Source: an uncultured virus (IMG/VR IMGVR_UViG_3300028920_001041) (Duplodnaviria > Heunggongvirae > Uroviricota > Caudoviricetes). Taken from it: a stretch of 64,000 bases of DNA. Under the pieces are notes generated by a model. The model searched no databases. It was given only the letters and a program-made list of their open reading frames with translations, and was not told where the DNA came from. Position 1 is the first letter of the stretch. Every line of letters begins with the position of its first letter. Position numbers and translations under genes: made by a program. Below, piece by piece: positions 5,462 to 63,527 of this stretch. The DNA is taken from the IMG/VR virus record IMGVR_UViG_3300028920_001041; one strand, written 5' to 3'.

Positions 5462-5962
5462 TTAAATATCACTTTCTCCTACATTAACTCCACTTTTCTT
5501 TGTTGATCGATCAATAACCGAGAATATACTATCATCATCACCAGGAGGTATTACTGTGGTGTCATCCTCGGTTAATACTTCTCGCCCTTCTCTAACAGAA
5601 TCAAGAGAAGTTAAAGGAGCACTTGGACGATTATCTTCGACCTCAGTTATCGCATCAACAGTCTTTTCCTCTACTTTCGGTGGAGCAGTAAATGCCGGTT
5701 TTGTTTCTCTAGTAAGATCCGGTCCTGCTGGTTTAACTGGAGGGACAATAGTAGGCCCAGGTGGTCTTACTGGTCCTGCAGTTACTTTTTGCGCTGATTG
5801 TATCTTCGCAAAGATAGTAGTAGCCATACTTGCTTCTTTAAACCCTGTAAAACTTGCAACATTCAATTTATTGAGAATCAATCCTGCTTCCTCGCCTGAA
5901 ATAATTAATTGAAACATTTGAGGTGTTGCTGGTGCCTGTTGTGTTTGATTATTTTCAACCAT
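5462..5962 (-). CDS. hypothetical protein with Pro-rich, probably disordered C-terminal part
   Basis: GGAGG RBS; 166-aa ORF. Confidence 0.75.
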   Translation of the reverse strand: MVENNQTQQAPATPQMFQLIISGEEAGLILNKLNVASFTGFKEASMATTIFAKIQSAQKVTAGPVRPPGPTIVPPVKPAGPDLTRETKPAFTAPPKVEEKTVDAITEVEDNRPSAPLTSLDSVREGREVLTEDDTTVIPPGDDDSIFSVIDRSTKKSGVNVGESDI

Positions 5963-6348: not shown

Positions 6349-6927
6349 CTATTCAACCCCTAATTTAATATTTTCAACTGCTTTGCGCAACTTCTCTCTA
6401 TCTCCATCTAATTTCTTTTCTGACTTTTCTTTATCTTCCTCTAATTCTCGTGTGAATTTAAGAAACGTTTCTTTATTTTTATTCAATTGATCTCTAACAA
6501 AGTCAAGAGATCTTTTTAATTCATCACGTTCATCAAGAAGAATCTTCTTTTCAATTGCACGAGCAGATGCACGGGTTATACCTGGAATCTGTACAGGTTT
6601 CTCTAAATAGTCGTAAACGTCTATCGAGCCAGCTTTCTTAAGACTATCAATATTTGGTCTAGCAGTAATAATTATAATCTGGATATTGTTATCTTTCTTT
6701 TTAGCATATTGTGCGACAGTCATACCGTCAAAAGCACTTCCTGGTTGTAAATATATATCTGCTATTACTAAATCAATATCCTCTTCCTCAACAGTCTGTA
6801 TTGCACTACGATAATCCAAAGATGTGAGAACTCGATACTCTTCTCTTTCTAGTGTCATTCTAAATAGTTCGACGACTTCCGGTTCATCATCAACTACTAA
6901 GACACCTGGTAACTTTATTGGGTCCAT
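6349..6927 (-). CDS. response regulator (receiver domain plus coiled coil, no HTH)
   Basis: VVDDE, IADIY (phospho-Asp), IITA, YLEKP. Confidence 0.9.
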   Translation of the reverse strand: MDPIKLPGVLVVDDEPEVVELFRMTLEREEYRVLTSLDYRSAIQTVEEEDIDLVIADIYLQPGSAFDGMTVAQYAKKKDNNIQIIIITARPNIDSLKKAGSIDVYDYLEKPVQIPGITRASARAIEKKILLDERDELKRSLDFVRDQLNKNKETFLKFTRELEEDKEKSEKKLDGDREKLRKAVENIKLGVE

Positions 6928-6929
6928 AA

Positions 6930-7526
6930 CTATTCCTCATCCCGTCTTTGGATAGATTTCACTGCATCGACAAGTTTAGATCTTACACTGGTCATCTTAC
7001 TATTAAGGTCTTTTTGATGATCAACTAACTTCTGAGCCATACTTAAATAATCATCATCTTTGACATTACACTCATCACCCGCTGCTAATTGTGCAATAGC
7101 TTCTTCGAGTTTCGTTTGAGACTCTTTATTAGCCTTCTCTAATTTACGTTGCTCTGTGAGTAACGTTTTTCTTTCTACTGCACGATTACAGATTTGAAGA
7201 AGAGTGTCACGACTAACTGGCTTTGTAAGATAATCAGTTGCTCCATATCGTAGGGCTTGTTGACTTGATTCAACAGTAGGTTCTCCAGTCATCATGATTA
7301 CTAATGTATCTGGACGAGCATCTTTAATAGCTTTTAATATTTTTAAACCACTAATTTTAGGCATCAATATATCTAGAAATACAACATCATAATCTTGTTT
7401 ACCAATAAATCCTTTTGCTTCTCCCCAATTTTCAGCAGTATCAACAACATGCTTTTGCTTTGAAAGAATCGATTTAAAAGAAAATCGTATCGATCTCTCA
7501 TCATCGACAATTAACACTTTTGCCAT
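6930..7526 (-). CDS. response regulator (NtrC-type receiver plus coiled coil, no HTH)
   Basis: IVDDE, FLDILMP, MMTG, YLTKP. Confidence 0.92.
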   Translation of the reverse strand: MAKVLIVDDERSIRFSFKSILSKQKHVVDTAENWGEAKGFIGKQDYDVVFLDILMPKISGLKILKAIKDARPDTLVIMMTGEPTVESSQQALRYGATDYLTKPVSRDTLLQICNRAVERKTLLTEQRKLEKANKESQTKLEEAIAQLAAGDECNVKDDDYLSMAQKLVDHQKDLNSKMTSVRSKLVDAVKSIQRRDEE

Positions 7527-7538
7527 AATATAAGCTCC

Positions 7539-9353
7539 TTAGAGATGAACAGCTTTTGGAAGATCAATAGTGAATTTAGTCCATTTCCCTTCCTCACTCT
7601 CTATTCTGATTTCACCTTTATGATCTTTTATGATGCCATAACTAATTGAAAGGCCTAATCCTGTACCAAAGTCTGGTCTCTTTGTTGTAAAGAATGGTTC
7701 AAATATTCTTTTTATTGCATCTTTAGGTATACCAGGCCCGTGATCTTTAAAGATTAATCGTAAATATTTATTATGTTCGCTAACTTTAATATCAATAATC
7801 TTATCAATCTCTTCGATATTAGGATACTTTTCATTTAATGCATAAATAGAATTACTCATTAGATTAAGAAGAACTTGTTGTATCTGTGATTTGCTGCACA
7901 TAATCATTTCTAAATACTCAGGTATATCAATATCAAGAGAAACTCCATGTTTCTTTAGATTTGCTTTAAACAAAGCTACAGAATCTAATACTACTTCTTT
8001 AATATCATTTGGAGTTTTATCTACTTCCTCTCTCCTAGCAAACGCAAGAAGATTCTTAACAATCTTAGCAATCCTATTCCCTTCTCTAACTATTTCGTTT
8101 CCATACCCATATTCTTCAGAGTTCGCCATTAAAATGTCTTTAAGAAGTTCACCATAAGTGATAATTCCTGTGATAGGATTATTAATTTCATGGGCAATTC
8201 CGGCAGCCATTTCTCCAAGAGAAGAAAGTCTTTGACTTTCGGCAAGTTGCTCTTGAATCTTATGGCGTTCTGTGATGTCACGTATTACTCCACGAAAACC
8301 AACAGGATTACCATCTTTTGATCTTTTAATAAATATACTAGACTCAATATGTCTTATTTCATCTTGCCCTTTAAACTTCCAATGAATATTTCTTAAATCT
8401 TGATTCATCTTATATGCATTCACAAATATTTGTTTTAATACATCAGCAGTTTTAACAGGAAAGAAATCAGTGAACTTCTTGCCTAAAATCTTATCATCAT
8501 TGAAATGAAATATAGTTAACGCTGCAGTATTTACAAAAGTGAATTTACCTTTTAAATCAACTTCATAATACCCCTCATCAGTGTTCTCGATAATCGTTCT
8601 ATATTTCTCTTCACTTTCTCGTAATTGCTCCATTGCTTCTTTATAATCTGTTACATCAGTAAAAGAATAAATATATCCTTTCTCTGACCGAACTCTATCA
8701 ATCATATTACCTATTAAAATGCAAGGAACACGTTGTCCGTCTTTATGAAGAAATTCATGCTCTAATACAACCTGACCCTTCCTATGAAACTGACTTCTTA
8801 CTTCATTATTAACTTTAATGAATTCAGCTTTATCTTCATACAAAAATCTAGACCTATATCCTACTACTTCATTAGGTTTATATCCGAGAATCTTGGTCAT
8901 AGATTCATTGCCCCAACGATTCTTATCGTTTTGCACAAAACAAATACCATGGCTTGTCGTATTGAGAACTGCAGATAACAATTCTTTGGTTCCTTCATTT
9001 TCTTCAAATTGCGACTGAAGTTTACTCTCTTTAAGCCCAAATTCTATAATAAATATTCCTAACATCAAGAATAGTACGGCAAATAAGAATCCGGCAAAGT
9101 CTTGAACATATTGCTCTAAATCGCTGCTACCTAATTTGACAAACTTATTAAATGCATCAAAATGGTAACTTACTTCAACTGCCGCGCCAAATACTATGAG
9201 ACATACACCAATGATAATATTTCTAACCTTTTGTTGTCTTAGGTTCTTTACAATTTTAATTAAATACAATATTATAATGAGCATGAATAAATAATTAGTG
9301 TATTCTAAGATCACTTTTGTCATTACTATTGTCCCACTGTCGATGTTAACCAC
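7539..9353 (-). CDS. membrane PAS-PAS sensor histidine kinase (NtrB-like)
   Basis: 3 TM segments, two PAS/PAC regions, H box AGIAHEINNP, N box QVLLNLMSN, DHGPG, FEPFFTTK, GTGLGL. Confidence 0.95.
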   Translation of the reverse strand: MVNIDSGTIVMTKVILEYTNYLFMLIIILYLIKIVKNLRQQKVRNIIIGVCLIVFGAAVEVSYHFDAFNKFVKLGSSDLEQYVQDFAGFLFAVLFLMLGIFIIEFGLKESKLQSQFEENEGTKELLSAVLNTTSHGICFVQNDKNRWGNESMTKILGYKPNEVVGYRSRFLYEDKAEFIKVNNEVRSQFHRKGQVVLEHEFLHKDGQRVPCILIGNMIDRVRSEKGYIYSFTDVTDYKEAMEQLRESEEKYRTIIENTDEGYYEVDLKGKFTFVNTAALTIFHFNDDKILGKKFTDFFPVKTADVLKQIFVNAYKMNQDLRNIHWKFKGQDEIRHIESSIFIKRSKDGNPVGFRGVIRDITERHKIQEQLAESQRLSSLGEMAAGIAHEINNPITGIITYGELLKDILMANSEEYGYGNEIVREGNRIAKIVKNLLAFARREEVDKTPNDIKEVVLDSVALFKANLKKHGVSLDIDIPEYLEMIMCSKSQIQQVLLNLMSNSIYALNEKYPNIEEIDKIIDIKVSEHNKYLRLIFKDHGPGIPKDAIKRIFEPFFTTKRPDFGTGLGLSISYGIIKDHKGEIRIESEEGKWTKFTIDLPKAVHL

Positions 9354-10029
9354 TTTTTGTTACTCCCGCTAATTCGAATATATTCCCTAGCACCACTCTA
9401 TTTTTAGGAATATGTAGTTCGCCACCTTCAATTACTTTCATAAAGTCGAACTCATATGCGGTTATAACACTTTTGACTTGACCAAATATCAATATAGACT
9501 CAAGCTGTGCATTGATTGAGATGTCTATTGAGTTCATTTCCCCTATGAATATATTAGAAAGAAAATCCACTTTTAATGTAGGTTTCTTTCTAAACTTTTG
9601 AATTACTCTAACTAAGAATGATTTTTTAATTCTTAAATCTTTAATATTTTTTTTACAGACAACAATCTGATTAGCACAATAATCATTAATTTCATTTATC
9701 AAATCTAATGTGAATATTTCTTCTCCCCTCGCTAAATATGAATTTAATAAGGTTCGAAGTATTGTTTGAACAGAGGATCTAATTTTTCCCTCGGGTGGGT
9801 CTGTATATCCAGTCTCATCATAAAGTCTTCTTTTCTCTGGATGCTTTAAGAGAGTATAAGCTTCATTAATAGCATCATATTTTTCTTCCGCATCAGCTTT
9901 TACATCTTCACTTTCAGTAGCAACTTTATCAGGATGGTATTTTTGTATTAATTCTCTATATATTCCTCTTAGATCTTCTTGTTTAACACTGCTATCAACA
10001 CCTAATACATCATACGGCGTTTGATCCAT
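9346..10029 (-). CDS. J-domain (DnaJ-like, class C) protein
   Basis: PYDVLGV...KYHPDK...AINEAYTLL...RRLYD. Confidence 0.9.
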   Translation of the reverse strand: MDQTPYDVLGVDSSVKQEDLRGIYRELIQKYHPDKVATESEDVKADAEEKYDAINEAYTLLKHPEKRRLYDETGYTDPPEGKIRSSVQTILRTLLNSYLARGEEIFTLDLINEINDYCANQIVVCKKNIKDLRIKKSFLVRVIQKFRKKPTLKVDFLSNIFIGEMNSIDISINAQLESILIFGQVKSVITAYEFDFMKVIEGGELHIPKNRVVLGNIFELAGVTKSG

Positions 10030-10056
10030 TACTATTTTCCTTCCGGACAAAGAATA

Positions 10057-49720: not shown

Positions 49721-49827
49721 AATGTTATCAGTTAGTCACAAAAGGTAATACAAAGATTTTATTACTTGTGCGACATAAACCCTATTCGTAGGGTTTATGT
49801 TTGCCCTAAATATGAAAGGAGAATTAG

Positions 49828-50184
49828 ATGGATCTATTATTTCAGCAGTTTTCGTTATACCCAACAATGTTAATTAGTATGTTTGGTATTGACATGTTAC
49901 GGGCAAGACCTAAAGAAGACTTCAAAACATTAGAAGCGAATAGTAAAAAAGTGTGTTTCATTGAATTCGCTACTTTCCCTTTAGCAGGAGAATCAATGGG
50001 ATTAGGATTATTACTTGATATTGAAGGTGCGAGAGTAATTCCAGCATTTATGCGATTTCAAATAATGGATGATGGTGAATATATATTACTTCAATATATA
50101 GAGATAAAAGATGAAGAATATAGAGATAAATTCAATGGGGATTTTAGATCATCTATGGGCGAAGTATTAAGGGAAATAGAATAA
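49828..50184 (+). CDS. hypothetical protein
   Basis: AAGGAG RBS; 118-aa ORF. Confidence 0.75.
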   Translation: MDLLFQQFSLYPTMLISMFGIDMLRARPKEDFKTLEANSKKVCFIEFATFPLAGESMGLGLLLDIEGARVIPAFMRFQIMDDGEYILLQYIEIKDEEYRDKFNGDFRSSMGEVLREIE

Positions 50185-50187
50185 TAA

Positions 50188-50226
50188 TATAGACCGTCAT
50201 TTGGCGGTCTATAATCTTATTTTTAA
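50188..50226 (+). terminator. intrinsic terminator
   Basis: TATAGACCGTCA-TT-TGGCGGTCTATA followed by a T-rich tract. Confidence 0.7.
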
Positions 50227-50232
50227 TTATTA

Positions 50233-50243
50233 TATATAGAAAT
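50233..50243 (+). promoter_or_regulatory. putative early promoter core
   Basis: TATATAGAAAT just after a terminator. Confidence 0.75.
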
Positions 50244-51169: not shown

Positions 51170-52108
51170 ATGATCTTCGATAAAGTTTGTCGGGTTGCTG
51201 AAAGAGCAATGCCTGACTTGGCAAGCATGTTAAGTAAATCGAAATTGTTTTGGTTTGATGGAAAACCACATGAATTCTTACCAAAGGAAATCACTGATAA
51301 AGACATGGAGTTCCTTTCTGAACAATTTATGCTACCCTTCCCCATTGTGGCTATTGAAGACGTGGGAAGCTTAGTTATTCTATACGATTTAGACCCTGGG
51401 ATTAGAGGTATAAACACAAAAAGAGGATTTATTGACGTCACTAGAATGGAAACTGACATATCTGCATATGACGATGCAGATAAAGTTAAAGAACAGAAAT
51501 ATCAAAAAGCTTGGGAAAAAGCTGGTATGGCAAACAAAGATCCTATGACAATTTCTTTCGGGGTAATTCATGAAGTAAAATTCATAAATAAGGAAGACTT
51601 TTACACAATCGGATCAGTACATCGAATAGTCCAGGCTTGTGCAAAAGCACGAGATGATGATATCATTTTTGTGGACTACTGTGATCCTGTGCAAATGCGT
51701 GAATTAGGACAAAAAGTTGTTGATAATCATTTAAGAGCTATGTTAAAAAATGCGATGTGTGCAATGCAAGAAGTATTGTACGCAAACACACCAAATAAGT
51801 TTATCTTAGAAGAGTCTCCAGTAAATCGTAGACCTGCAAGAAGAGGAAAGCTATCAAGGTCAAATGATAGACCAGTCTACACATTACTTAAACCTGGGCA
51901 AATTAGATCTAAAATGGAAATAACTGAATCATCAGACGGCGAAAAACAAACTCGGTTATTCCTCGGAAGAAGAGCCCACCCGAGAACATACCATGACCCA
52001 CGGTATGTTAACATGCAGGGGAAGACGGTTATGATACCTGCTGTTTGGCCCGGAGAAAATACTAAAATTGTTGGAGCCAAGCGTTATAAGGTAATGCTTG
52101 ATTTATAA
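51170..52108 (+). CDS. hypothetical phage protein
   Basis: AAGGAG RBS; C-terminal RRAHPR...W motif. Confidence 0.8.
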   Translation: MIFDKVCRVAERAMPDLASMLSKSKLFWFDGKPHEFLPKEITDKDMEFLSEQFMLPFPIVAIEDVGSLVILYDLDPGIRGINTKRGFIDVTRMETDISAYDDADKVKEQKYQKAWEKAGMANKDPMTISFGVIHEVKFINKEDFYTIGSVHRIVQACAKARDDDIIFVDYCDPVQMRELGQKVVDNHLRAMLKNAMCAMQEVLYANTPNKFILEESPVNRRPARRGKLSRSNDRPVYTLLKPGQIRSKMEITESSDGEKQTRLFLGRRAHPRTYHDPRYVNMQGKTVMIPAVWPGENTKIVGAKRYKVMLDL

Positions 52109-52497: not shown

Positions 52498-52974
52498 GTG
52501 GAATTATATACATTTGAAGAAGTAAGAGATAGGGTGAATCATTTCATTAACGTTGTTAAAAAGAATGGGGAATGGGATGTTATACTTTATGAGATGCTAA
52601 CCGCTGAGTTTAAGAATTATTATACACCTAATATTCCATATGATTATAATCAACCATATCAATCCCAAGATTGTAAGATCTATATTAAGAACGGCACATT
52701 TGAAATTGAAATATGTCAAAATATTGAATCCGTATATCCCACTGTTAATGTATTTCAAATAGATGGTACATCAAACCCAGATCAGATAGATACAATATCT
52801 ATGAGAGAATGGTTATATGTTTACTCTAACCCAGAAGGAATGACTCTATTAGAAAAAGTAGAATTCACAATTGAAAACACAGATTGGCAACAATTAGATG
52901 AGGAAAGAAGAAAAAGGTTAGGGCAGGGGATGAGACCAGATGATATTGAATACGATGATGATATTCCCTTTTAA
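52498..52974 (+). CDS. hypothetical protein with SSB-like acidic C-terminal tail (YDDDIPF)
   Basis: AGGAG RBS, GTG start; ends PDDIEYDDDIPF. Confidence 0.75.
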   Translation: MELYTFEEVRDRVNHFINVVKKNGEWDVILYEMLTAEFKNYYTPNIPYDYNQPYQSQDCKIYIKNGTFEIEICQNIESVYPTVNVFQIDGTSNPDQIDTISMREWLYVYSNPEGMTLLEKVEFTIENTDWQQLDEERRKRLGQGMRPDDIEYDDDIPF

Positions 52975-52998
52975 TATTCAACACGATTATATAGAAAT
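52971..52998 (+). promoter_or_regulatory. putative early promoter (extended motif)
   Basis: TTAATATTCAA-N6-TATATAGAAAT. Confidence 0.78.
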
Positions 52999-53029
52999 TA
53001 GAGTTATAAACATTAATTCTGGGAGGATT

Positions 53030-53422
53030 ATGAAAACTAATGAAGACTATTGTAAAGATATGTTAATCGGTATTTTTAAGAGGTTAAATCAGTTACCCAT
53101 GAAAAGGTCTACGGATTGGATAATGGAGATTATCAAAGAACGTGTCGAACTAAACATCGACATATTTAAAAATGCTGAATTAACTATAAAGTTGTGCGGC
53201 AAGAATATTGCAGACTTAGAAAGGCTCCCTGAAGCACGAAGAAACTCAGATTTCGGGGTATCTCTATTGCGAGAAAAGTTTGGCAGTATTATTCATTTAA
53301 TGGGTAATCCTGACAACGAATACCAGAAAGGAGGTGGTGGGGATAAGTTTGCCAAAACTAAAAAAGAAATTGAAGACCTGGCTAGAGGAGAACAACAAAG
53401 TAATAATGGCGAAGGAGATTAA
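53030..53422 (+). CDS. hypothetical protein
   Basis: GGGAGG RBS before ATG 53030. Confidence 0.72.
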   Translation: MKTNEDYCKDMLIGIFKRLNQLPMKRSTDWIMEIIKERVELNIDIFKNAELTIKLCGKNIADLERLPEARRNSDFGVSLLREKFGSIIHLMGNPDNEYQKGGGGDKFAKTKKEIEDLARGEQQSNNGEGD

Positions 53423-53627
53423 GCGTGTCACTAAGGGAGGATATGCTATTCTCGTATCAAAAGGATCTCGATCACAAGAGATCCTTTTTAGTCAAGGCCA
53501 CCAAATAGTTGCTGTGCAAGTTGCATTTAGATTAGGCTGGTTTAAGCCTATGAGATGCGGTTCGCATAATGAAACTATATATGGTTTCGAATATGGAGAA
53601 AATCGCGAGAAATATTTGCGATTTTAG
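53406..53627 (+). CDS. hypothetical protein
   Basis: ORF overlapping the upstream gene, followed by a terminator. Confidence 0.5.
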   Translation: MAKEIKRVTKGGYAILVSKGSRSQEILFSQGHQIVAVQVAFRLGWFKPMRCGSHNETIYGFEYGENREKYLRF

Positions 53628-53629
53628 TG

Positions 53630-53665
53630 ATGCCCGGAGCAATCCGGGCATACAACTCTTTTTTT
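53630..53665 (+). terminator. intrinsic terminator with GCAA tetraloop
   Basis: ATGCCCGGA-GCAA-TCCGGGCAT followed by a T tract. Confidence 0.75.
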
Positions 53666-53691
53666 AATATTCAAGAATTTCATATAGAAAT
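53664..53691 (+). promoter_or_regulatory. putative early promoter (extended motif)
   Basis: TTAATATTCAA-N6-CATATAGAAAT. Confidence 0.78.
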
Positions 53692-53699
53692 AGTGTTAA

Positions 53700-53890
53700 C
53701 ATAGATAGGGTGGATACATTTTTTATGTTTCCACTTTACTATCCTAGGGGGCTTTTAGCTTCCTCCGGCGTGATTATCTAATATCTTCGGATGTTAGGTG
53801 ATCAGGTTAAGTCGGTTCGTCTGCCCGAACAGGGGGACGTTGGTGAATATATCTTCGGATATGTTCACCAACGCCCTTCTGTTTGCAGTA
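53700..53890 (+). ncRNA. putative ~190-nt structured RNA with two cUUCGg-capped long hairpins
   Basis: own promoter, no ORF; TGATTATCTAATATC-TTCG-GATGTTAGGTGATCA and AACAGGGGGACGTTGGTGAATATATC-TTCG-GATATGTTCACCAACGCCCTTCTGTT. Confidence 0.7.
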
Positions 53891-53899
53891 AAATTAGTT

Positions 53900-53927
53900 T
53901 TAATAATTAACCTTTTTATATAGAAAT
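53900..53927 (+). promoter_or_regulatory. putative early promoter (extended motif)
   Basis: TTAATAATTAA-N6-TATATAGAAAT. Confidence 0.75.
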
Positions 53928-54087
53928 AATTAATACATAAAGTTCGAACTTTACGAGGGCCATTCAAATATCCTCGGAAAGAGTCTATTTTAGGCTGTTT
54001 TCTACAAAGCGGAAGGGGAGTGTTTTTGTAAACATTAGATAATATACGGGTACCTATGAGCCTAAAACTAAAAGCTAAAGGAGAATC

Positions 54088-54552
54088 ATGTTTACTGAAA
54101 AGGAGATCGAATTTCTAAAAACCTTGGTATTTACTGATTTAAATCTTAAATATACAGGGGATAGTATTGAATCACTATTAAATTGTGGATATATTAACTT
54201 CAATATTCCCAGAGAAGACGTAATATTTAGGAGAACTCTTCTCACCAAGTTGATGTCCGCTAAAATTAGAACCCACGACAATAGGCCTTCTCCACCATCT
54301 ATATTCAGTCCGGGAGTAGTTCCTAATGCTGTCAACAAAGCTAAAAAGCTTACTGCTGCTCAGATTAATATAATAGCAGGATTGATTATGGAACAAAAGA
54401 AGCTCGAGGCTATTAAAATGTTTCGAACTTACACTGGATTAGGTTTAAAGGATGCGAAGGAGTTTATGGACTTGTTTATTCCAATGGGACATACACCAAG
54501 CAACTTCTCGTATATTAGTGCGTCAAACGCATTCTCGGATATATGTGTATAA
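54088..54552 (+). CDS. protein with ribosomal L7/L12 C-terminal-like domain
   Basis: KKLEAIKMFRTYTGLGLKDAKEFMD; AAGGAG RBS. Confidence 0.8.
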   Translation: MFTEKEIEFLKTLVFTDLNLKYTGDSIESLLNCGYINFNIPREDVIFRRTLLTKLMSAKIRTHDNRPSPPSIFSPGVVPNAVNKAKKLTAAQINIIAGLIMEQKKLEAIKMFRTYTGLGLKDAKEFMDLFIPMGHTPSNFSYISASNAFSDICV

Positions 54553-55163: not shown

Positions 55164-55189
55164 AATATTTATAAGTAATATATAGAAAT
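55162..55189 (+). promoter_or_regulatory. putative early promoter (extended motif)
   Basis: TTAATATTTAT-N6-TATATAGAAAT. Confidence 0.75.
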
Positions 55190-63121: not shown

Positions 63122-63160
63122 GTGGTGCGGTATTACCCCGCACCACTATCTATTTTTTTT
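63122..63160 (+). terminator. intrinsic terminator
   Basis: GTGGTGCGG/CCGCACCAC stem followed by a T tract. Confidence 0.75.
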
Positions 63161-63162
63161 GC

Positions 63163-63360
63163 AAAAAAACAAGAAGCGACCGCAACCTAAGACGAATCTC
63201 AAGTTACAGTCACATCTTGCTGGAGGACGATAAATTAAATGTAAGTCGATTAACCGAAACGACGAAACACAGTAATTAGTATACACTGTTCAGTTTCAAG
63301 CCACGTCGGTATCGACTTTATGTATTAATTAATATTAATAGAGCGAGTCTATCAATATTA
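63163..63360 (-). ncRNA. putative ~195-nt structured small RNA
   Basis: promoter at 63369-63379 (-); AAGTCGAT/ATCGACTT helix; long G-U-rich hairpin with TTCG loop followed by a T7 tract. Confidence 0.62.
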
Positions 63361-63368
63361 CTATTAAT

Positions 63369-63379
63369 ATTTCTATATG
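63369..63379 (-). promoter_or_regulatory. putative early promoter core
   Basis: CATATAGAAAT on the - strand. Confidence 0.7.
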
Positions 63380-63392
63380 ATTTTTTTAAAAA

Positions 63393-63490
63393 TTAAAAAG
63401 AACGGCCCTCCCCGGAGAAGGGAGGGCCAACCTAGAAAAGGAATTCAGTGATACGACTGTGAAAATGATCATATCAAAAGAACTTCCGCA
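63393..63490 (-). ncRNA. putative ~95-nt small RNA
   Basis: promoter at 63497-63507 (-); 5' hairpin GATATGA/TCGTATC; terminator GGCCCTCCC/GGGAGGGCC with T tract. Confidence 0.58.
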
Positions 63491-63496
63491 TTTAAT

Positions 63497-63507
63497 ATTT
63501 CTATATA
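63497..63507 (-). promoter_or_regulatory. putative early promoter core
   Basis: TATATAGAAAT on the - strand. Confidence 0.7.
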
Positions 63508-63527
63508 ACTGGTTGAAATTATTTAAT

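Follow-up and report, generated by a model that had tools for sequence, protein, structure and literature searches.

The element described here, which we call RNA A, belongs to an uncultivated phage and lies within a 64-kb window, by which we mean the whole stretch of DNA that was analysed. The record of a neighbouring protein gives a contig of 306 kb for the phage, and the DNA runs that contain the stretch are labelled as marine sediment metagenomes. Tail-fibre and virion proteins are encoded on the minus strand, which points to a phage origin. On the plus strand a block of small ORFs starts at ~49.7 kb, and nearly every unit of this block is preceded by a short cassette composed of a T- or AT-rich box, seven variable bases and a 10-nt core (repeat families D1 and D2). 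The window and three related loci (L001, L002 and L003, see below) together contain 30 exact core sites, and the window itself about 11 cassettes. In 28 of the 30 cases the core is accompanied by a T-rich box, as judged by eye, and oriented towards the downstream gene; the two sites that have no T-rich box both fall within the minus-strand gene block. Among 39 loci that were fetched, the core occurs only in L001, L002 and L003. The cassette was not flagged by a simple sigma-70 scan; its recurrence, its position and its orientation suggest that it is a promoter.

RNA A is flanked by such cassettes on both sides (Table 1). The preceding unit ends with a gene of 73 codons, which on sequence grounds is a true protein gene. 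Its product has no Pfam or PHROGs family, and the Atlas model of this protein is poor (pLDDT 0.39) with weak matches only. Behind the gene stands a terminator-like hairpin that is conserved in all three relatives, with one compensatory change from G-C to A-U in L002, and the run of seven T residues following it doubles as the start of RNA A's cassette. The next cassette follows ~30 nt past the last hairpin of RNA A (H4). The gene downstream encodes a 154-aa protein whose match to PF00542 is short (residues 102-128) and close to the threshold (27.3 bits against a cutoff of 25.9). Its AlphaFold model is helical with a mean pLDDT of 66 and has no Foldseek match in the PDB at E <= 0.001. Neither structure model gives a hint of RNA binding by the 73-aa or the 154-aa protein. 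The position of the element between a terminator-like hairpin and the next promoter, with a promoter copy of its own, had been noted in an initial annotation of the sequence; it was borne out here, the promoters being putative ones.

Table 1. Features in and around RNA A (coordinates of the 64-kb window)
Feature	Coordinates	Strand	Evidence or remarks
73-codon upstream gene, ends the preceding unit	53406..53627	+	Intact and full-length in L001, L002 and L003, 45-63% aa identity
Terminator-like hairpin (53630-53651) and 7-T run (53659-65)	53630..53665	+	Sequence, fold
Promoter-like cassette of RNA A, core 53682-53691	53659..53699	+	Repeat families D1/D2
Structured RNA (RNA A)	53700..53890	+	Fold, covariation, covariance model; ends estimated
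H1, promoter-proximal hairpin with U-rich loop	53701..53742	+	Fold; 3/10 consensus pairs altered on both sides
H2, short hairpin	53746..53764	+	Fold; 4/7 consensus pairs altered on both sides
Short basal stem under H3	spans 53765..53815	+	Fold
H3, 15 contiguous pairs, cUUCGg cap	53771..53804	+	Fold; 3/17 pairs altered on both sides
G+C-rich linker between H3 and H4	53805..53828	+	20 nt identical in 4/4 phages (alignment)
H4, long hairpin	53821..53888	+	16 contiguous, 10 lower and 4 outer pairs, cUUCGg cap; 7/25 consensus pairs altered on both sides
Next promoter-like cassette, core 53918-53927, serving the downstream gene	53898..53940	+	Same place in L001, L002 and L003
5' leader of the downstream gene, ~150 nt	53935..54087	+	Conserved ~23-nt motif
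154-codon downstream gene	54088..54552	+	Short PF00542 match (ribosomal L7/L12 C-terminal domain); anchor for finding relatives

By eye, hairpins are found 6-9 nt ahead of a T-rich box at 50192-50213, at the terminator-like hairpin upstream of RNA A and at H4, and their sequences differ; further boundaries consisting of a hairpin plus a cassette follow downstream at 55180 and 61744. The other boundaries of the block have one hairpin each. In addition, other predicted transcripts of the block likewise have a hairpin at their beginning, a short distance after the cassette. Hairpins capped by UUCG behind cassettes of the block are located at 49772-49801, 53771-53804 (H3), 53838-53873 (within H4) and, on the minus strand, at 63179-63216. 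The first of these, a leader hairpin of 13 bp, is kept in L003, and in L002 the same pairing is formed by a different sequence.

The predicted fold of RNA A is exceptionally stable. The minimum free energy of 53700-53900 on the plus strand is -92.4 kcal/mol, compared with -49.6 +/- 4.4 for 200 dinucleotide shuffles (z -9.67), none of which folded as well. The leader of the downstream gene, which served as an internal control, folds unremarkably (z +0.38; 130 of 200 shuffles were at least as stable). When both strands of the whole 64 kb were scanned with a sliding window of 120 nt, the stablest segment was 53761-53880 on the plus strand at -59.0, against a plus-strand background with a mean of -16.9 and a standard deviation of 6.4. 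The minus strand of the RNA A region reaches -60.3 kcal/mol (z -6.4), some 32 kcal/mol short of the plus strand, and 12 of the 75 pairs in the RNA A fold are G-U pairs. The 12-nt cUUCGg cap exists in exactly two copies in 64 kb, at 53781 and 53849; it is the sole part common to H3 and H4, which are otherwise unlike. The earlier description of four hairpins, two of them long stems carrying an identical cUUCGg cap, and of G-U pairing specific to the plus strand is therefore accurate. The length of ~190 nt given for RNA A is an estimate.

Relatives of RNA A were found through the neighbouring protein. Five full-length relatives of the 154-aa protein (61-71% identity) were aligned, and scanning metagenome contigs with this alignment led to the three loci L001, L002 and L003. 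In each of them, as in the window, the order is the 73-codon gene, the hairpin with its T-run, a cassette, RNA A, a second cassette, the leader and the gene. Folded separately, each of the four homologues gives the same set of four hairpins, and the ~26-bp helix of H4 is kept in every one of them, while its four outer pairs are present only in the window copy and in L003. The energies on the plus and minus strands are -92/-60, -77/-58, -82/-59 and -82/-65 kcal/mol, and those of the consensus fold -65.9 and -47.5.

Covariation was counted on an alignment of the four sequences (A4), in which two members are 91% alike. The consensus contains 62 pairs, and 95.9% of the 246 cells hold a standard pair (99% in H4). 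Seventeen of the 62 pairs are altered on both sides (three in H1, four in H2, three in H3 and seven in H4), so that the covariation in related phages which the initial annotation had named as a check extends to all four hairpins. None of 500 shuffled alignments matched the covariation values. This control takes no account of the relatedness of the sequences; a second one, in which the 3' partners were slid by 1-3 columns, does so and gave 0-2 pairs altered on both sides with 41-48% pairing. Changes such as G-C to G-U to A-U preserve the pairing of the RNA. In L002 the stem sequence of H2 is replaced with its pairing kept, and in L003 the loop-closing C-G pair of H4 has become A-U. Four DNA runs that were examined yielded one further L002-like contig of 220 nt and one single-base variant; the contig variant, A53738G, converts a U-A pair of H1 into U-G.

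The conservation of RNA A is distributed in blocks. Its mean nucleotide identity (0.76) is higher than that of the upstream gene (0.63), the downstream gene (0.68) and the next leader (0.61). About 85 of the ~190 positions are invariant, and they are concentrated in the upper parts of H3 and H4, in the junction at the base of H3 and in 20 nt of the G+C-rich linker; the apical ~17 nt of H3 show no variation across the four sequences. The lower stems and the whole of H1 and H2 are variable with compensation. With four sequences, two of which are 91% alike, the invariant blocks may partly reflect shallow sampling.

A covariance model built from A4 (R1) scores the four homologues at 202-226 bits, and otherwise recovers only reverse-strand echoes of the near-palindromic H4; there is no second copy of RNA A within the window. 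A unit near 63 kb on the minus strand is of the same style. It comprises a cassette at 63378, hairpins, a 17-bp UUCG hairpin and a run of seven U residues, with no convincing ORF, and the phage thus appears to carry promoter-to-terminator RNA units. It is not recognisable as a paralogue of RNA A: no convincing alignment extends beyond the cassette, and R1 does not match it.

Searches for known families and for more distant homologues were negative within their scope. The search of the window against Rfam 15, which had been proposed as a check, gave no match at the gathering threshold. At E <= 10 eight sub-threshold matches appear within 53400-54200; those over RNA A are of microRNA or snoRNA type with 15-25 bits, the best having 25 against a threshold of 80, and are explained by the hairpins. 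L001, L002 and L003 gave no Rfam match at E <= 1, and ARAGORN found no tRNA or tmRNA gene in the window. Neither 53600-54090 in blastn nor the 312-aa neighbouring protein in tblastn had a match in 50,697 phage records. The IMG/VR collection contained no relative of the 154-aa neighbour, whether searched with the single sequence or the alignment. Nor did exact searches for the cap stretch of H4, the cassette plus start or the invariant linker give a match in it; 14 of its loci encode distant relatives (24-33%) of the 312-aa protein and have neither RNA A nor the cassette core. A search of species genomes with 18 nt of the linker gave 22 matching stretches, approximately the number estimated by chance. 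The best of the 22 (L009, 19.7 bits) was rejected as a homologue, its alignment being without H3 and H4 and resting on the 18-mer itself. Word searches of open-access full texts returned no description of RNA A or of the clade, and a report may exist elsewhere.

What RNA A might interact with was approached through base pairing. The best non-self duplex of the linker with either strand of the window has an energy of -29.5, within the range of minima obtained with ten shuffled seeds (-24 to -30.8). Duplexes between RNA A and the next leader are no better than those with shuffled leaders in any of the four phages. Moreover, ~85 invariant positions exceed what a simple antisense seed needs. These fixed positions, together with the lack of a complementary target in these searches, favour a protein-binding RNA acting in trans over an antisense regulator. 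The CUUCGG loop is described in the available part of a review as unusually stable, a nucleation site for folding and bound by no proteins (PMC4371310). The caps are hence more likely to be stabilisers of the fold than recognition sites, and specific recognition would more likely involve the invariant linker, the junction and the helices.

Apart from a separate RNA gene, four explanations of the locus have to be considered. The presence of a small protein, with the hairpins being incidental, has a practically negligible probability. It is true that the statement of the initial annotation that the region has no ORF does not hold literally, since ORFs of 39 and 41 codons are found on the plus strand, and the 39-codon frame (53791-53910) is open in L001 as well as in the window with 82% identity. 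However, this frame is broken in two of the three relatives, by two in-frame stops and the loss of the ATG in L002 and by a stop in L003, beyond which no start codon follows; to this extent the statement stands. The sequence upstream of the 39-codon ORF has no Shine-Dalgarno, and the substitutions compensate RNA pairing rather than being synonymous. The latter point also weighs against an element acting at the level of the DNA, such as a replication origin or a packaging or recombination site made of inverted repeats. We consider this very improbable: each homologue has 8-12 G-U pairs, which are C-A mismatches on the opposite strand, the plus strand is the stabler one by 18-32 kcal/mol in all four phages, and no iterons or tandem repeats exist within 53628-54087. 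Such a site would nevertheless be in keeping with hairpin-rich, gene-free DNA between AT-rich flanks and with the low z-score of the minus strand mentioned above.

A smaller but real chance must be given to a cis-acting leader, in which case RNA A would stay on a transcript reading into the downstream genes and act on its own transcription complex or message. RNA A lies directly behind a cassette, and after H4 there is a short U-rich stretch in the window and an A-rich tail in the relatives, with no conserved U-tract in L001, L002 and L003, whereas the hairpins behind real genes and that of the 63-kb unit do have U-runs. H4 is thus terminator-like in a weak sense, and the missing U-tract makes read-through into the next gene likely, which would render the element at least partly a leader. 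It could be a processive antiterminator resembling HK022 put, taking RNA polymerase through the hairpins that separate the many short downstream units, and boundaries of this kind do recur farther downstream. It could also be an attenuator or a ligand-sensing leader with H4 as the switch. The linker can pair either with the beginning of H4 or with the 5' strand at the base of H3, the two pairings being mutually exclusive, and covariation cannot choose between them because both partners are invariant. Yet in all four phages a second full cassette between RNA A and the gene would bypass any control of that gene, and of the ~11 cassettes in the window no other is followed by an element of this kind. 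There is no match to an Rfam riboswitch or leader family, and the pairing with the next leader, as described above, is no better than with shuffled leaders. That RNA A is a module for RNA processing or stability we hold to be improbable. It would then not function as an RNA of its own; its long helices would be cutting sites of a double-strand-specific RNase or exonuclease barriers and, with the flanking cassettes, would make up an enlarged form of the PeSL-type terminator/promoter boundary where, in the available part of the original account, early promoters are joined to terminating or attenuating stem-loops (PMC2839356). The long H4 helix of all four phages and the recurrence of stable UUCG-capped hairpins behind the cassettes of the block agree with this, as does the fact that the UUCG tetraloop was first discovered in phage T4 mRNA (PMC4371310, available part). 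Such a boundary requires neither an upstream promoter nor four hairpins, nor an unpaired linker with 20 invariant nt; one hairpin suffices for each of the other boundaries in the block, and by the model R1 RNA A is unique in the window.

We are therefore left with a preferred reading whose parts differ in strength. That RNA A is a selected RNA structure of some kind is very probable. That it is a separately acting structured non-coding RNA is the reading we favour by a modest degree. A conserved non-coding element of four hairpins between two cassettes, in the place of a gene, is most simply read as an RNA gene, and cassettes on both sides of it are more in keeping with a separate unit than with a 5' or 3' UTR. 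The best reading of the family is that it is undescribed and, within the reach of the data, restricted to a narrow clade of jumbo phages from marine sediment that have not been cultivated. The proposal of a dedicated early ncRNA with its own promoter made in the initial annotation is thus supported as regards a conserved structured element (by the fold, the covariation, the conservation, the broken ORF and the cassette of its own), while the term early is taken from the surrounding gene block only and the timing would be that of the block. The roles suggested in that annotation (decoy or antitoxin mimic, anti-defence RNA, protein sponge) receive no specific support from the data.

From these data we infer that RNA A is transcribed, has ends close to those estimated in Table 1, acts in trans and has a protein partner. 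Transcription would proceed from its own copy of the cassette and start at or just ahead of H1, which as a 5'-terminal hairpin probably protects the 5' end. H1 is probably generic, like the hairpins opening the neighbouring transcripts. The transcript would then continue through H2, H3, the invariant G+C-rich linker and the long H4, the two cUUCGg caps serving to nucleate and stabilise folding. The best candidates for recognition by a protein partner would be the linker, the junction at the H3 base and the upper helices of H3 and H4. In this form RNA A may act in trans early in infection, as a component of a stable RNP or as a decoy. Its 3' end might be generated by weak termination at H4 or by cleavage of the ~26-bp helix by a double-strand-specific RNase.

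It is also conceivable, if rather unlikely, that RNA A represents a new kind of RNA effector based on shape and not on base pairing, either a put-like element acting on the polymerase or a double-stranded decoy of ~26 bp. If the former were true, RNA polymerase would pass the numerous hairpin boundaries of the early block as though they were absent. In the latter case, the ~26 bp and the invariant G+C-rich platform would sequester a host defence protein that senses or cuts RNA during the first minutes after infection.

RNA A can be compared with several classes of known RNAs. CsrB/RsmZ sponges and ToxI share with it a structured, non-coding, multi-hairpin nature. The CsrB/RsmZ sponges present many GGA motifs in hairpin loops or single strands. 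The window copy of RNA A has four GGA triplets, none of them in an open loop: those at the caps span the last loop G and the closing pair, the others are inside helices, and L003 lacks the triplet of the H4 cap, so that a sponge of this type was rejected. ToxI-type antitoxin RNAs of type III systems consist of tandem direct repeats beside the gene of an endoribonuclease toxin, and retron msr/msd RNAs have an adjacent reverse transcriptase gene. Among 22 proteins around the locus, Pfam and PHROGs identified no reverse transcriptase, toxin, nuclease or defence-type family, and 53628-54087 has no tandem repeat; both assignments were discarded. RNA anti-CRISPRs, which are solitary repeat mimics, resemble a CRISPR repeat of the host. 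HK022 put, with a length of about 70 nt and two hairpins, exerts its effect on RNA polymerase in cis. According to the available portion of one report (PMC9378689), pausing and termination in early phage genes are suppressed by this element of the nascent RNA. Both put, which in this account works as an RNA without a protein product, and RNA A are built from hairpins just behind an early phage promoter, putative in the case of RNA A. Unlike put, RNA A is followed by a second cassette, and the likeness derives from its position behind a cassette and from the missing U-tract.

The flanks of RNA A recall the PeSL cassettes of T4-type phages, for which the accessible text describes an early sigma-70-like promoter with an AT-rich upstream part and a terminating or attenuating stem-loop (Arbiol et al. 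2010, PMC2839356). The likeness concerns the flanking cassettes, with a repeated promoter-like motif, an upstream stretch rich in A and T and, putatively, an associated stem-loop between the genes, all within a block of small ORFs of unknown function; a repeated motif with an AT-rich part in such a block is indeed found here (30 cores, 28 with the box). RNA A differs from a PeSL in being a unique 190-nt element of four hairpins between two cassettes, in the position usually taken by a gene. The CUUCGG hairpins of T4 have the same very stable cap in phage transcripts (PMC4371310). In the available part of that review they are single hairpins inside messages, whereas RNA A has multiple hairpins, its own cassette and invariant parts outside the helices.

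The non-coding RNAs of phages are barely charted, those of jumbo phages especially, and the few that have been mapped are without known function, as stated in the available part of a study of the Pseudomonas phage 201phi2-1 (PMC11512511). The comparative support for RNA A is unusually clean for a sequence from metagenomes only, with covariation in all hairpins, conservation above that of its neighbours and a cassette of its own. RNA A is small and can be synthesised, which makes it a suitable object for probing the roles of early structured RNAs in giant phages, and A4 and R1 provide the seed alignment and the model of a new RNA family that can be searched for across metagenomes. In 201phi2-1, ONT-cappable-seq revealed 11 small RNAs, of which three are intergenic and eight derive from 5' UTRs; the structure of one of them is conserved in related giant phages, and their functions are given as unknown in the same part of the study (PMC11512511). 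Like RNA A, they are short non-coding units of a jumbo phage, those of 201phi2-1 each running from a start site to a stop close by (PMC11512511, same part). They were found from transcript ends, whereas RNA A is known from sequence and covariation alone, and no sequence shared between its clade and these phages is detected, as judged by blastn and tblastn against the phage collection. In our view RNA A is a new family and not a new principle, and its nearest kind are the small RNAs of the giant Pseudomonas phages.

Near 63 kb the window contains a second candidate RNA unit, in which the promoter-like cassette (a T/AT-rich box and a 10-nt core) is followed by hairpins and a U-run on the minus strand. 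The fold energy of the unit is −95.7 kcal/mol (z −9.46), and the 120-nt window ranking second in stability over the whole 64 kb lies inside it. Its UUCG-loop hairpin is made up of 17 bp with five G-U pairs. We found no convincing ORF in this unit, a search of Rfam gave no match, and alignment with the 53.7-kb RNA, the conserved four-hairpin structured RNA candidate on the plus strand, is possible over the cassette only. The contigs from the relatives do not extend over this unit. A third short unit with a cassette, a hairpin and a U-run is present on the same strand; a hydrophobic peptide of 28 codons may be its product, or it may be non-coding.

Hairpins are also found in the leaders of other plus-strand units. 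The leader of the first plus-strand gene carries a UUCG-capped hairpin of 13 bp that is unchanged in L003, one of three related metagenome contigs (L001, L002 and L003) with the 53.7-kb RNA in the same gene order, while in L002 the same pairing is formed by a different sequence with a different loop. The units at 50234 and 50435 likewise open with hairpins directly behind the cassette.

The protein genes upstream of the 53.7-kb RNA deserve some comment. The mechanically called 160-codon ORF encloses a complete cassette (core at 52989), about 40 nt past which there is an ATG within the frame that has a good ribosome-binding site, and in the relatives this frame contains stops upstream of the internal ATG. 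Because of these three features the real gene, as judged from sequence, probably starts near 53030 and comprises ~130 codons. A terminator-like hairpin with a U-run is situated within the coding sequence of a 73-codon gene; in L003 matching substitutions in the two arms of the stem maintain it, and L001 and L002 show no clear preservation of it. The 312-aa protein has no family in Pfam or PHROGs and belongs to a large uncharacterised family. With an E-value limit of 0.001 it matches 735 cluster representatives, and with a limit of 1e-30 it matches 175; family members are carried by IMG/VR contigs of 19-183 kb.

Coordinates of the features in the window and in related contigs
Feature	Window (strand)	Relatives	Details
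Second candidate RNA unit	63160-63395 (minus)		Cassette (core start 63378), several hairpins, UUCG hairpin, 7-U run
Third short unit	63400-63520 (minus)		Cassette (core start 63506); strong G+C-rich hairpin and U-run ~90 nt on
First plus-strand gene leader hairpin	49740-49828 (+)	L002 ~1760-1815; L003 ~2010-2070	
312-aa protein	51170-52108 (+)		
160-codon ORF	52940-53422 (+)		
Terminator-like hairpin	53459-53494 (+)		
G-rich leader motif	~54000-54025	L001 ~2763-2786; L002 and L003 ~5920-5945	
L12-like gene	54088-54552 (+)		154 codons
Histidine kinase, receiver and DnaJ-domain genes	6349-10050 (minus)		
Radical SAM gene set	3978-38112 (minus)		
Sugar-nucleotide genes	within 3978-38112 (minus)		DAHP/Kdo-8-P synthase family member; cytidylyltransferase; NAD-dependent epimerase/dehydratase; transaldolase-like protein; deacetylase-like protein

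The minus strand also holds a set of radical SAM genes that is unusually large for a phage. The Pfam Radical_SAM cutoff was passed by 12 of the 43 ORFs scanned, with two more just below it, and two radical SAM ORFs show an additional domain signal, either a faint B12-binding match or a SPASM domain. Sugar-nucleotide genes are intermixed with this set, which adjoins the tail-fibre genes. Consecutive genes on the same strand encode a PAS-domain histidine kinase of 604 aa, two response-regulator receiver proteins and a DnaJ-domain protein.

Downstream of the 53.7-kb RNA, the leader of the L12-like gene contains a G-rich motif of ~23 nt followed by a U-run, near-identical in the four phages (the window and its three relatives), which could be a regulatory site. 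The remainder of this leader is poorly conserved and unstructured. The AlphaFold model of the 154-aa product is all-helical, with a pLDDT of 80-90 in the C-terminal half, and nothing in the PDB matched it within an E-value limit of 0.001. Residues 102-128 score 27.3 bits (cutoff 25.9) against the ribosomal L7/L12 C-terminal domain, and the protein might be a mimic of part of L12.
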